Of a DNA stretch of 64,000 nt, positions 19,061 through 24,655 are shown piece by piece. Each line of letters starts with the position of its first letter. Positions within the stretch are counted from its first letter, which is position 1. This stretch comes from Mobula hypostoma (lineage: Eukaryota). A model generated the notes under the pieces. That model made no database searches and had not been told where the DNA came from. It was given only the letters and a program-made list of their open reading frames with translations. The translations under genes and the position numbers were made by a program. The stretch lies in NCBI RefSeq assembly GCF_963921235.1, contig NC_086107.1, forward strand, positions 111,788,001-111,852,000, read 5' to 3'.

Positions 19061-19737
19061 ATAAGGATCTCACATGAGCAGGAACTGTGCTATTGATATA
19101 TAGGAATGCAACAGAACAGGACTGAAAGTATGTGTAAAGAATGGAAAAGCATTGCAAGGTTCATTCTTTGTCACGAATGAAGTCTATTTTGATAATAAAA
19201 ATAATACATTGAGAACATCTCCTCATGGGAGAGTTTGACAGGAAAGTGTAGAGGGAACTTTAATGTCTGTCTCATGTTTTATTTTTGAATTCAGACCTAG
19301 TTCCTCATTTTGTATTAAAAATAACTTTATTTAGAACATTTAAATTAAAATGCTACCTTCGCTGAGTGGATACACTCTAGTCTGCACTGGATACATTCCA
19401 GCGATCTGATGGACTATGTGTCCTCCCTCCCTCTCCAGGAATATTAACGTTTTCCCAGGAGAGTGGCAGGCACTCGGCTTGTATAGACGGTCCAGTGGCC
19501 TGTCGACTGGAGTAGGACCGGCACCTTGGCCAGGGCCAGGAACAGACCCTCTGATAAGACAGTGTGAGGGGCATTTCACAATCACAATCAGGCTCAACAT
19601 CAGCGGCTCATGTCGTGAAACTTGTTAACTGTGTGGCAGCAGTACAATGCAATACATGATACATATAGAAAAAAACTGAATTGCAGTCATTATATATATA
19701 TGTGTAACTTAAATAGTTAAGTTAAAATAAACAGTGC

Positions 19738-19923
19738 TGTACCTTATAATAAGGGACTACTTTATGTTTTAGTAACACGTCATTGCATGCGCTATTAGGC
19801 GCGTATTGATCTGTGCGTGTGTGCCGAGTTCGGTTTCTGCCGGTAAAGAACCATGAACCTTAGCTCCCGTCTCCAGCGTTTTTATTAATAGCATTGTTGT
19901 GTAACCAGGCCACATACAAAACA
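19738..19923 (+). repeat. 5' LTR
   Basis: Aligns to 23671-23868 with roughly 15 substitutions and one 12-bp indel (counted by eye); followed by the PBS. Confidence 0.95.
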
Positions 19924-20274
19924 AATTGGCGACAAGGTTAATGAACCTACATCGTATCGGAACACCGTGTTTTAATTGATAATGACACTCGGAGGAAGAG
20001 CGCCAGGAACGAGCCAAGGAGCGGGAGAAGGAGGCACAGCGAGGCCGTGAGTCTGAAAAGAAGCGGGAGCACAGCCGGGGTCCGGAATGTCAGGAGACCA
20101 AGAGATGCAGTCAGAGCCGCGGCACATCCAGCCGAGACCACAGCCGACGCTGAGCCCCAGGGGCTGAGGGTCTGCCTGCCCCAGAAGGAAGATAAAAAGG
20201 AGCGATACACACAAAGGACACGTGAGTCAAAAAGGGAAATAAGGGGAGAACAGGGCTTAATTAACATAATAAAG

Positions 20275-21475
20275 ATGGCAATGATTGAAACCATTACAGC
20301 ATTTGATAGTGGCATTGAAGACTGGGCAGCTTACACTGAAAGAGTGGAGTTATATTGTGTGGGTAATGGTGATAAGGATGAAAAGAAAGCCAGCGTCTTA
20401 CTCAGTATTATGGGAGCAAAAACATACGGCCTGCTACAGAGATTGTTAACCCCTGAAAAGCCAGCTGACAAAGCGTTCAAGCAGACAGTAGACACTCTCC
20501 AACAGCATTTAAACCCCAAACCATTGGTCATTGCAGAAACATTTAAATTTCACAATCCGAATCAGAGCAAAAATGAAAGCATTTCCGAATATTGAGCTGA
20601 ATTGCGTAATTTATCAGAACATTGTCAATTTGGAGCTGGTCTATCGGATGCATTGAGGGTCAGGTTCTGTGTGGCATGCACTGTGAAACCACACAGAAGA
20701 AGCTTCTGTGTGAAAAAGACCTTACGTTTGAGAAAGTGCTAAACATTGCAATATCAACAGAAACAGTGGCACAGGGTGCTTCCGAAATATAACAAAAATC
20801 TCTGGAATATGCCACAAATAAAATGTCACCGAACAGGATTGAAGGAAAGAAATGTTATCGTGATGGGAACAGGTCACATGACCCAGATGACTGTTGGTTT
20901 AAAGACAAAGAATGCAGAAACTGTGGCAAACAGGGCCACATTGGCAGAGTATGCAAAGCTAGTCAACAGCAGAAAAAAGGCAAAATAGAGAGAAACAAGA
21001 AACCCCAGAAAGGAAAATACAACAAGGTACACAAAATGAAAGAAGGAAGTTCTGATGAAAGCAGTTCTGATGAAAACGACTCCGATGAAAGCGAATTGTC
21101 TTGTCGGCAACTTCACAGCATGAAAGAAACAGATGATCAAAGAGTAATATCGATCACTCCACAAGTGGCGGGCGTGAGACTGAAAATGGAGTTTGACACA
21201 GGCTCAGCTTTAACAGTGATCGTTGTACACGACTACAAACAACTGTTTTCGCACATACCCCTGAAATGAACTAAACTTCTACTAAAGACTTACACAAGAC
21301 AGAAAGTGCATCCCAAAAGTAAAATTAAAGTGACGGTGACCTACAGAGACAAAACACAGCAGCTGAACCTCTATGTACTAAAAAATGGAGGACCACCATT
21401 GCTGGGACGGGAACGGCTCAGGAAAATCCAGTTGGATTGGCACACCATCAAGGCACTGGATGTGTCAACAAAGGA
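20275..21475 (+). pseudogene. Gypsy gag and aspartic protease, disrupted
   Basis: FDSGIEDWAAYTERVELY (gag), CRNCGKQGHIGRVC zinc knuckle, LKMEFDTGSALTVI (protease DTG), PPLLGR; contains stops and frameshifts. Confidence 0.92.
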
Positions 21476-21494
21476 GGGCAGCTCGGCGGGGAAG

Positions 21495-22428
21495 ATGTCC
21501 GCAGCTCTCCTCTCACCCATTGTCAACTATTACAATGACAAGGAGGAGCTAGACAGCGTCGACGATGAGGACGAACGCAGTATCCGTGGCCGCGACACGG
21601 ATGAAGATACAGACAATGCAAGGGAGACAGATATTGCCAATAAGCAGGATGATGAAGACTACCTGGAAGTAAAAGAGCAGATGTAACAGTAGAAATTGGT
21701 ATCTCTCAAAAGACAGCTACAGCAGTTACAGGAAGGCACTTTGCAGGAGTATCAGAAATGGATGAAGAAACCAGATCAACAATACAAGGAAAGAATATGA
21801 AATGCAGAGCTTTTTCTGCAACTGGAGACGGGACAAGTGGAAAGGAATTATATTAAAGAGAAGAAAGCAGCAGTGAAGGAATTTGAAGATAAAAAGATTG
21901 AGTTAGAAGAAAAGAAAAAGATGATTGAGAATGAGAGGCCAACAATGGAAATCACAGGAGATTCTATGGAGGTAAAGCCAATAATGACTAGGAAACTAAG
22001 GAGGAGACCTAATGACTCTGTTCCAATTACAGACAAAAGACAAAAACCTGCACCTGCGCAGTTAAATTACTTGTTAACAGATGAACAGATAATGTAAGAT
22101 CTGCGAACTCTCAATAAGCTTAAGTCTCTGAAAAGACCAGCATCTGTCTTCTCCTGAGCATCTTCCCAGCACTCCTGCTGAATCACCAGCACAAAGATAT
22201 GAAGCACGAATAGATGATGAAAAGTTATATTATGATAAGAGATGGTATCATAAAGGTCAGGCTCTCTATTTGGAATCTAAGGAGAATACGAAGATTGGCT
22301 GTGTAATTAGCTCAGTTGGAACAAATGAGATATAGGTAAGGAAGACAAGTGATAGTACAAAGATGCGTATATACCTAGAACAGCTGCACAGAGGAGTCTT
22401 CATTATACGGAGGCGATCAGCTGCCTAG
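21495..22428 (+). pseudogene. SUDS3: Processed (intronless) SUDS3/SDS3 Sin3-HDAC subunit retrocopy
   Basis: [109 protein letters not shown] matches vertebrate SUDS3 from start to stop; several premature stops, a frameshift near 22145, and a short in-frame deletion. Confidence 0.95.
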
Positions 22429-22520
22429 AAATCTTAGCCAGTTGGAGGCGCACATCTTCTTAACTCCCTATGCTCACAGGTCAACTTTTCATGACTTTTA
22501 TATGGAAATCTGTATTAAAA

Positions 22521-23406
22521 CAATCAGCAAAAATGATGAAACTATGTACAGGGAGGAGGTCAAACACCTAGAGAGCTGGTGCAGGGATAACAACTTGATG
22601 CTTAATGTCACCAAAACCAAGGAGATGATCGTCGATTTCAGAGGGTCTCAGCCAGAGCACACACCCCTCAGCATCAGCGACTCCACAGTGGAGAGAGTGG
22701 AAAACATCAAGTTCCTTGGGGTGCAGATCTCGGACAATCTCACCTGGTCCAGGAACACCACTGGGATTGTGAAACGAGACCAGCAGAGATTGCACTTTCT
22801 GAGGAAATTTAAACAAGCATCACTCCCCACTAACATCTTAACTACATTCTACAGAGGCGTGGTTGAGAGTGTGCTGACCTTTTGCATCACAACCTGGTAC
22901 TCCAGCTGCAGTGCTGTCGACAAAAAAGCCTTGCAGAGGGTGGTTAGGGGAGCAGAGAAGGTTATTGGGGTCTCCCTACCTTCTGTCCAAGACCTCTTTC
23001 AGAGTCGATGCCTCCAGAAGACACAGTACATCATTAAAGACCCCTCACACCCTCTCCATGAACTGTTTGTTCTTCTGACATCAGGCAGACGTTACAGGGG
23101 CATCAAAACTAAAACCACAAGGCTACTAAACAGCTTCCTCCCACAGGCAGTCAGACTGCTAAATAGCTGCTCTACCTGACTCTGCTTTGGACACTTTTAA
23201 CTTGCACTGGACACTTATAACTGATTTTAACTGACATGTGGCTGTTGTGTTTTACTATTTATTGTTATGTTTATTATTTAGTGTTGCGTTTGTTATGTTA
23301 TGATTGCACTGCCCCTGAAAAACGCTGTCTCATTCTGCCCTGCAGAGCTGATGTATGGTTAGAATGACAATAAAGTTTTCTGAATCTTTGGATCTTGAAT
23401 CTTGAA
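22521..23406 (+). mobile_element. Rex/Babar-like LINE 3' fragment nested in the Gypsy element
   Basis: Open frame YREEVKHLESWCRDNNLMLNVTKTKEMIVDFR..KFLGVQISDNLTW..NSFLPQAVRLLN; (cttgaat)n tail. Confidence 0.9.
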
Positions 23407-23670
23407 GTTTATTGACAGACATTACCCGGAGAGGCAGAGAAGATCCCCCCCGCCCCCCAGAGACTTGAGTTATAAATGGGTCTTAGACCAAAAGTAAAAA
23501 AAAGACTCGTTATAATTTGATGTTGTTATGTTACTTTGTTATAATTTGATATTATTAAGTTACTAAGTAAACAAATGGTAGGCATTTGTATGTTAAGGGT
23601 AAACATATTTGTTTAGTGTAGTGCCCCAGTTAAAACAAAATTATACACTATTAAAATACAAGGGGAGGAG

Positions 23671-23868
23671 TGTACCGTATAGCATACAGTATAATAAGGG
23701 ACTACTTTATGTTTTATTAACACGTCATTGCATGCGCTATTAAGCGCGTATTGATCTGTACACGTGTGCCGAGTTCAGTTTCTGCCAGTAAAGAACCATG
23801 AACCTTGGCTCCCATCTCTAGCGTTTTTATTAAGAGCGTTGTTGTGTAATCAAGCCACATACACAACA
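23671..23868 (+). repeat. 3' LTR
   Basis: Preceded by the PPT and followed by TSD agtgc. Confidence 0.95.
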
Positions 23869-23911
23869 AGTGCAAAAACAGAAATAAACAAAATACTGAG
23901 GTAGTGTTCAT

Positions 23912-24655
23912 TAAACCACAAAACTTAATTGATATAGTTGTTGAAGAAAGTGTGAAAATGGGTCAATCGATCAATTGCAAAAAGGCAGAATGTATGGTGA
24001 TATCCAAAAAGAAGGAGAATCCTATCTGCAGGCTGAGAATAAATGGGGAAGACATAAAACAAGTACAGAACTTTTGCTACTTAGGAAGCTGGGTGACATC
24101 AGATGGTAGGTGCAACATGGACATCAAAAGAAGAATAGAGATGGCAAAAAACACCTTCACGAGAATGAAGAGCATACTGACCAACACTAAACTAAGTATG
24201 ACAAACCGCCTCAGAGCACTGAAATGTTACGTTTATCCATTTATGTTATATGGCTCAGAATGTTGGACAATATCTAGCAACATGAAGAAACAAATTGAAG
24301 CAGCGGAGATGTGGTTTTTGCGGACGATGCAAAGAATATCATGGACGAAACAAATATCTAACGAGGATGTCATGAACAGAGCAAGCACAAAAAGAGAAAT
24401 AATGTATGAGATCATGAAAAGGCAATGTGTCTTCATTGGACATGTGATTAGGAAAGAGGAGTTAGAATGCACGGTAATTATGGGAAAGATTGAAGGAAAG
24501 AAAGCAAGAGGAAGGCAAAGACAAATGATGATGGAGACAGCAGCCAGAGAACTGGAAATGAATACCAATGAATTGATCCACTTGACCTGAAACAGGAGTG
24601 TGTGGGCCATGGCAGTCAAAGCTCAAACTGGGCATGGCACCTGATGATGATAATG
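23912..24655 (+). mobile_element. RTE-clade LINE 3' fragment
   Basis: QVQNFCYLGSWVTSDGRC..DIKRRIEMAK..MLYGSECWT..GKIEGKKARGR; (tga)n tail; TSD agtgttcat (23903-23911) versus agtgtttat (24656-24664). Confidence 0.9.

Follow-up and report, generated by a model that had tools for sequence, protein, structure and literature searches.

Acutely transforming retroviruses carry Gag-oncogene fusions in which pol is replaced; they depend on helpers and are somatic and infectious. The maize element Bs1 is a non-autonomous long terminal repeat (LTR) element that holds fragments of several genes and is present in low copy number. Tan et al. (2016, Genome Res, PMC5131818) have described LTR retrocopies, in which an intronless messenger RNA (mRNA) copy replaces part of the internal open reading frame of an LTR element. 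According to the passages of that paper considered here, such copies are proposed to arise by template switches within the particle, microsimilarity was found at 25 of 29 junctions, and two fly retrocopies were re-mobilised as non-autonomous elements; Bs1 is named there, and so is the capture of FAM8A1 by HERV-K in human, a single untranscribed locus. For cartilaginous fishes, SUDS3 has been listed among the five parental genes with most retrocopies (bioRxiv 10.64898/2026.06.26.734816); the preprint passages at hand tie retrocopy abundance to non-LTR elements, and the word 'Gypsy' is absent from them. Here we describe a 4.1-kb Gypsy-type LTR element of the cartilaginous fish Mobula hypostoma in which an intronless copy of SUDS3 occupies the place of the region for reverse transcriptase (RT), RNase H and integrase. 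It lies at 19738-23868 of a stretch of 64,000 nucleotides (contig NC_086107.1, positions 111,788,001 to 111,852,000, forward strand), referred to below as the window, and has the same 5-bp target-site duplication (TSD), agtgc, on both sides.

A reading of the window made from its sequence alone (the sequence-only reading) had taken the element for a chimera formed during reverse transcription and integrated at this place as one unit. According to our analysis, it is highly probable that the window instead holds an old, dead copy of a high-copy, non-autonomous Ty3/Gypsy family that goes back to a single capture of SUDS3 and was amplified in trans.

A dispersed family with one chimeric junction

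The genome searched was the 3.48-Gb assembly from which the window comes. A query with the SUDS3 part of the element gave 689 first-look candidates, and the 40 that were scored comprise the window's own place and 39 others at 91-94% identity, none of which reaches beyond window position 22527. The LTR gave at least 1500 first-look candidates, and the SDS3 protein of a ray 1706 candidates with 125 contiguous matches. A 30-mer laid across the chimeric junction of protease and SUDS3 occurs 309 times in the genome with up to three mismatches, 34 of these exactly, and its reversed-sequence control does not occur at all. In the 40 copies fetched for comparison, which resemble the window copy most closely, protease and SUDS3 are joined at the identical base without exception (40/40).

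The copies are spread over many contigs and both strands, and homology among them stops exactly at the LTR termini. Both LTR ends could be located in 15 of the 40 copies; 11 of these are flanked by perfect 5-bp TSDs, three by TSDs with one mismatch, and one has none. The TSD words differ among copies, save for one pair (L023 and L030) that shares ggaag. These two are unrelated insertions with a g before both, and chance or a weak target preference could explain the shared word.

A tree of the SUDS3 segments of 39 copies is star-shaped, with a median end branch of 0.042 and good support for only 2 of its 36 inner branches; the mean pairwise distance among copies is 7.6%. Within copies, the two LTRs differ by Kimura two-parameter (K2P) distances of 0.064-0.153 (median 0.108); the window pair, with 185 nt aligned and 91% identity, has a p-distance of 0.102 and a K2P distance of 0.111. 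This picture fits one founder, one burst and a long neutral decay. Because the junction is identical across the genome, the copies have TSDs of their own and the tree is star-like, we attribute the founding of the family to a single capture event.

One-mismatch variants of the junction 30-mer are mostly changes of CG to TG or CA at the CpGs of the 12-nt leader ahead of the SUDS3 start codon. This pattern is a signature of methyl-CpG decay and implies germline methylation of the copies. Public runs covering 11 organisms and 13 studies contained 17-36% of the words sampled from the protease-SUDS3 stretch, and two of the four runs that were aligned (X13 and X2) had contigs that span the chimeric junction. 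The family is probably common to several related species.

Parental gene, helper relatives and junctions

The open copy L043 has 88% identity with P0001, the SDS3 of Mobula birostris, and scores 28.9 bits with the Pfam family Sds3 (PF08598), for which the gathering cutoff is 25.4; the broken SUDS3 reading-frame pieces of the window copy gave no Pfam match. All family copies lack 24 nt coding for the eight residues KENLIAEL, which are present in SDS3 of ray, sawfish and chimaera and whose codons are also found in contigs of two public runs aligned to a copy. Apart from this deletion, only P179T and S255G differ from the true protein in at least 70% of copies, the three fish proteins being otherwise invariant in this comparison. 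The missing 24 nt are flanked by two TGAGTT repeats and lack GT..AG intron ends, so that their loss would fit slippage during reverse transcription.

A degenerate KENLIAEL pattern has a single genome match, at C78:8400168-8400190(-). The gene itself was absent from the scored matches of the ray SDS3 protein search, where retrocopies crowded the ranking. On the same contig, an extension of the SUDS3 3' untranslated region (UTR) found in some copies, called B type below, matches C78:8380299-8380539(-) at 94%. Contigs of three runs track a B copy to L026:3899 and then diverge, and their continuation has a single genome match, free of mismatches, at the adjoining C78:8380269-8380298(-). The parental SUDS3 gene therefore lies on contig C78, at a locus with intron-sized gaps that is known by marker coordinates and run contigs. 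Since the KENLIAEL codons and the exit point from the 3' UTR are separated by 19.6 kb in the C78 gene but by 629 nt in the element, the introns appear to have been lost from the captured copy. The captured 3' UTR ends 337 nt past the stop codon, inside a longer parental 3' UTR that extends at least 1 kb further in a run contig.

On the 5' side of the cargo, two contigs of run X13 track the protease to L026:2612 (window 21482) and then continue with AAGACTACATCTGAGAGACTGTCACAAATA, translated as KTTSERLSQI, which resembles the RLSQLL ahead of RT in Gag-Pol relatives. A 30-mer of this pol-type continuation occurs 185 times in the genome (control none), and at least 10 of the listed places lie within or between matches to P0122, a Gag-Pol protein of 1315 residues. 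P0122 contains protease (PR), RVT_1, RT_RNaseH and rve in Gypsy order and is 61% identical over Gag-PR; across the Gag-Pol proteins of 1311-1318 residues, the family's Gag-PR is 60-65% identical. The open Gag-PR of copy L058 scores 20.9 bits with Pfam RVP (cutoff 20.7). In the window the DTGS and the knuckle pattern can be read from the sequence; zf-CCHC scores 17.3 bits, below the cutoff of 20.8. Taken together, the LTRs, the TSD, Gag-PR and the domain order of the relatives point to a lineage of Ty3/Gypsy type.

Between protease and tail, RT, RNase H and integrase domains were found neither in the window nor in the 40 fetched copies, and no autonomous fragment was found in the window or in 60 genomic loci examined. 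Measured against P0122, about 900 codons (about 2.7 kb) of pol are gone, and the element is non-autonomous. Copy L058 has an open frame of 485 residues running from the gag ATG into SUDS3, and the stretch from protease to the SUDS3 stop is open in three copies. The founder most likely encoded a single Gag-PR-SUDS3 protein of about 713 residues.

At the 3' end of the cargo the family exists in two forms. The tail could be read in 37 of the fetched copies; 22 of these are of A type and 15 of B type, and the window copy is of A type. Downstream of ..TTGACAGAC, the sequence of A copies is (A/G)TTACCCGGAGAGGC followed by AGAGAAGA(C)n..CAGAGACTTGAGTTATAA, whereas B copies have 225 other nucleotides between ..TTGACAGAC and AGAGAAGA. 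By its match on C78, this extension is parental SUDS3 3' UTR. Compared with the B form, the A form retains an additional 15 nt of pol, and its 3' UTR is shorter by 225 nt. The tail that follows in both reads RRYPERQRRPPPQRLEL-stop, with RRYPE in copy L050, and matches the final 17 residues of the Gag-Pol relatives P0122, P0123 and P0125, which as a set end in PRRYPERTRAPPKRLEL, PRRNPERIRAPPKRLDL and PRRNPERLRAPPKRLDL; we therefore read the shared tail as the end of pol.

In the window copy, the agac at 23417-23420 is common to the end of the SUDS3 3' UTR and the pol remnant, and B copies also have the bases of 23405-23420, just ahead of their extension of parental 3' UTR. The A-type junction would accordingly overlap the SUDS3 3' UTR by the four nucleotides AGAC. 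Both this overlap and a blunt B junction presuppose a pol end of the form ..AGACGTTACCCGGAGAGGCAGAGAAGA.., as the relatives suggest. Because the 5' junction and the 24-nt deletion are common to both forms, one of the two derives from the other. The A/B split appeared neither in the tree nor in a search for discriminating columns across the 39 copies. We favour B as the first form, with A arising from it by a switch from autonomous RNA to chimera.

Anatomy of the window copy

Table 1. Features of the SUDS3-carrying element and its flanks, in window coordinates.
Feature	Position	Strand	Remark
5' TSD agtgc	19733..19737	+	repeated at 23869-23873; 5-bp TSDs of their own in other copies
5' LTR (TG...CA)	19738..19923	+	direct repeat of 23671-23868
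Stretch like a primer-binding site, ttggcgacaaggttaatgaa, starting with TGG	19926..19945	+	3 nt past the 5' LTR
gag-protease coding region, broken	20275..21482	+	from ATG 20275; terminates within the PR-RT linker
CX2CX4HX4C (CCHC) knuckle	about 20910-20957	+	inside gag-protease
DTGS protease motif	21195-21206	+	inside gag-protease
5' fusion point, pol linker / SUDS3 5' UTR	21482..21483	+	pol-type contigs diverge here
Captured SUDS3 5' UTR, 12 nt	21483..21494	+	in frame with gag-protease
Intronless SUDS3 coding sequence (CDS)	21495..22428	+	ATG 21495, stop 22426-22428; 311 codons in family
SUDS3 3' UTR, first part, 98 nt	22429..22526	+	contiguous in all copies; attaaa at 22514-22519
Fragment of a long interspersed nuclear element (LINE), L2 type, 5'-truncated, 878 nt	22527..23404	+	RVT_1 and ALKBH8_N Pfam matches
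SUDS3 3' UTR, final 16 nt of A-type copies, aagtttattgacagac	23405..23420	+	from comparison of A-type and B-type copies
pol C-terminal remnant, R-H-Y-P-E-R-Q-R-R..P-Q-R-L-E-L-stop	23417..23475	+	TAA 23473-23475
Element 3' untranslated region	23476..23670	+	'tail' conserved in other copies
Polypurine tract aaggggaggag	23660-23670	+	abuts the 3' LTR
3' LTR	23671..23868	+	direct repeat of the 5' LTR, likewise with TG and CA at its ends
3' TSD agtgc	23869..23873	+	matches the 5' TSD

The window copy (Table 1) is among the most decayed of the sample. Its SUDS3 CDS has five premature stops, the sample maximum, and a frameshifting 2-nt deletion. Its gag-protease, aligned to the 394-residue open Gag-PR frame of copy L058 (90% nucleotide identity), contains three stops, a 1-nt deletion and a 15-nt insertion, and a change in poly-C length disturbs the frame of the pol remnant. 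A leader of 350 nt separates the stretch resembling a primer-binding site from the gag ATG. All 15 copies whose LTR pairs are complete keep this stretch right behind the 5' LTR.

The LINE fragment is private to the window copy: none of the 40 other copies carries it (0/40), and in all 40 the base corresponding to 22526 meets 23405 directly or by way of additional 3' UTR. The ALKBH8_N match on the fragment amounts to 57 bits, and the name evidently also covers a C-terminal segment of LINE RT, so that the match does not speak for an AlkB gene.

Several observations concern the LTRs and the surroundings. The LTRs fall into length classes of about 198 nt and about 223 nt, which differ by a 25-nt tandem duplication (gcgctattaggcg..tattga) and are seen, for example, in L022:647-843 and L022:3876-4098. 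As the two LTRs of one copy can differ in this respect, the duplication has been gained or lost after insertion, or exchanged between copies. Right behind the 3' TSD, at 23850-24590 (+), an open frame of 246 residues resembles the C-terminal part of a LINE reverse transcriptase, and a Pfam search of this frame gave nothing above noise. The Gypsy copy appears to have inserted into an older retroelement or next to one.

Most of what the sequence-only reading had described can be found in the window as it said. The LTRs, the TSD, gag, the protease and the attaaa are in place, the LINE is a later insertion, and the segment it named as the C-terminal remnant of pol corresponds to the C-termini of full-length Gag-Pol relatives, such as PRRYPERTRAPPKRLEL in P0125. 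It was likewise right that SUDS3 lacks a poly(A) run and a TSD of its own and that several kb of pol, about 2.7 kb by our estimate, are missing and replaced by SUDS3. Candidates for its primer-binding site and polypurine tract are the conserved TGG-starting stretch and the purine run that abuts the 3' LTR. The SUDS3 CDS that it called whole is intronless, but it is neither intact nor complete, being 24 nt short. Two details have to be given up: the supposed short GC-rich SUDS3 leader shrinks to 12 nt, the GC-rich bases upstream belonging to pol, and the attaaa does not mark the end of the captured RNA, the parental 3' UTR extending past this motif.

Origin of the family and comparison with known systems

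We posit the following course of events. A spliced SUDS3 mRNA would have been co-packaged with the RNA of an autonomous Gypsy element having a single Gag-PR-RT-RNase H-integrase frame of about 1315 residues. Reverse transcriptase would first have copied the 3' end of the element together with the last 12 or so codons of pol, then switched to the SUDS3 3' UTR at a point 337 nt beyond the stop codon and copied the entire CDS, losing 24 nt between the two TGAGTT repeats on the way. At a point 12 nt ahead of the SUDS3 ATG it would have jumped back to the element, into the linker between protease and RT, to give an LTR-gag-PR-SUDS3-tail-LTR product of about 3.3-3.5 kb with one frame of about 713 residues and without RT, RNase H and integrase. 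The A form probably arose by a further switch between autonomous RNA and chimera at the shared AGAC. Helper elements may then have copied both forms in trans in one burst, leading to several hundred or more integrations, each with a 5-bp TSD, after which all copies would have decayed neutrally. An L2 LINE fragment later entered the 3' UTR of the window copy.

Some points weigh against this history. Both scored whole-query Gag-Pol matches carry stops (7 and 17), so that no working helper is shown today, and the RNA nature of the four aligned public runs is only guessed. The 40 copies studied are those closest to the window copy and hence a biased sample. The B-type 3' junction is without microhomology, the parent reading ..AATCT/GGAACA against a pol flank of ..GAGGC/AGAGAA that is itself deduced from A copies. 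The AGAC overlap of the A form, and any microhomology where protease meets SUDS3, are likewise matters of deduction, the parental 5' UTR and the autonomous elements being known by coordinates only, and the tree leaves the order of B and A undecided.

The sequence-only reading had anticipated part of this course. Formation of the chimera by reverse transcription and its integration as a whole agree with the pattern, but capture at the present locus does not. The search it had proposed for further LTR-SUDS3-LTR copies with different TSDs came out strongly positive (11 perfect 5-bp TSDs in 15 copies), and its suggested comparison with the parental locus bore out intron loss by the two C78 markers. 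Its proposed test of the junctions for microhomology gave 0 nt at the B-type 3' junction and a presumed 4-nt AGAC overlap at the A-type one.

A functional role of the cargo for element or host, for example through a Gag-PR-SDS3 protein that perturbs Sin3-HDAC (histone deacetylase) silencing, appears unlikely to us. The CDS is full-length and fused in frame, and two residues and the 8-residue deletion separate most copies from an otherwise invariant true protein. In a more specific form, which we rate as quite unlikely, the Gag-protease-SDS3 fusion would have redirected or impaired the host Sin3-HDAC corepressor as a counter-defence that loosened silencing; the position of the deletion in the coiled-coil region of SDS3 and the surplus of the family over the helper type (309 junction matches against 185 of the helper-type continuation) could be read in this way. 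However, an in-frame fusion is expected in one third of cases by chance, and non-autonomous elements are commonly more numerous than their helpers. The variants are also spread evenly over codon positions, with 187/170/180 singletons and 24/20/21 variants shared by at least four copies, and this flat spectrum gives no sign of purifying constraint on the SUDS3 cargo, in a test that, given the star tree, has little power over a short founder lineage. No more than 3 of the 39 CDSs lack both stops and gapped codons. The SUDS3 copies do not behave as a working gene under purifying selection.

A few copies are annotated as SDS3-like genes, which could be taken as a further hint of function. Public 'SDS3-like' models of two Mobula species (P0002-P0005, P0073, P0119) carry the 8-residue deletion. 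On visual comparison, P0073 is the same as the open cargo frame of L059, and P0004 agrees in large part with the L024 frame but has a different N-terminal exon grafted on. P0004 and P0073 are transposon cargo annotated as genes.

It is very improbable that SUDS3 entered an already deleted Gypsy element as a LINE-mediated processed pseudogene and that the family spread later. LINEs have been active in this genome, and one of them entered the window copy. Yet SUDS3 is without a poly(A) tail or TSD in A-type and B-type copies alike, its 3' end lies within the parental 3' UTR with at least 1 kb more to follow, its 5' end precedes the ATG by 12 nt and keeps the frame of the protease, and the pol sequences that flank it are some 900 codons apart in P0122. 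Spread by segmental or other DNA-level duplication, for which nothing specific speaks and on which copy number alone is silent, is barely conceivable in view of homology that ends at the LTR termini, TSD words that differ in all but one pair, the dispersal over many contigs and both strands, and the star-like tree. The notion of a one-off chimera whose capture is recorded at the window locus, which the window copy taken by itself, a complete capture product with a clean TSD, would invite, has next to no probability and is ruled out by the 40/40 shared junctions with their own TSDs and the 309 genome matches; moreover, the window copy is, with its five stops, among the most decayed.

A single capture amplified in trans, as we prefer to read the family, can be set beside the systems described above. 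No description of a SUDS3-carrying LTR element was found in our literature searches. The mechanism, LTR-mediated retroposition, is known; what is unusual is an amplification of this extent in a vertebrate. In Mobula hypostoma, the abundance of SUDS3 copies goes back to one LTR-spread capture, and not to repeated retroposition or selection, which offers a concrete explanation for the rank of SUDS3 among the retrocopy parents of cartilaginous fishes; the retrocopies here stem from an LTR element, in contrast to the non-LTR link drawn in the preprint passages. The other top parents named there, MIPOL1, SDF2L1, SLU7 and ZNF276, might likewise be cargo of amplified elements. Public 'SDS3-like' gene models are hereby flagged as transposon cargo, and the presence of junction variants, parental locus and helper relatives in one genome makes the family a good system for the study of template switching and trans-mobilisation.

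Like the transforming retroviruses, the family has a spliced host CDS in place of pol, an in-frame fusion of Gag with a host protein and a need for helpers. Those viruses are selected for their cargo, whereas the SUDS3 family consists of fixed germline copies in which no selection on the cargo was detected. With Bs1 it shares the retained gag and the transduced host gene sequence, but Bs1 carries several gene fragments at low copy number and the SUDS3 family one whole CDS at high copy number. The HERV-K capture of FAM8A1 is similar in that a vertebrate LTR element took up a processed host gene; it differs in being a single locus, for which the passage concerned mentions no amplification. The closest likeness is to the LTR-mediated retrocopies of Tan et al. 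(2016), as far as the passages considered describe them, in which both LTRs are kept and the insert lacks a poly(A) tail and a TSD of its own. The SUDS3 family departs from these cases in its at least 309 copies as against two or three mobilised ones, in its complete in-frame CDS and in its cartilaginous fish host, and from most of their junctions in that one of its own is without microsimilarity. While the animal cases in these literature passages involve one to a few insertion sites, the family described here indicates that the capture of a complete host CDS by an LTR retrotransposon can be followed by hundreds-fold germline amplification in a vertebrate.

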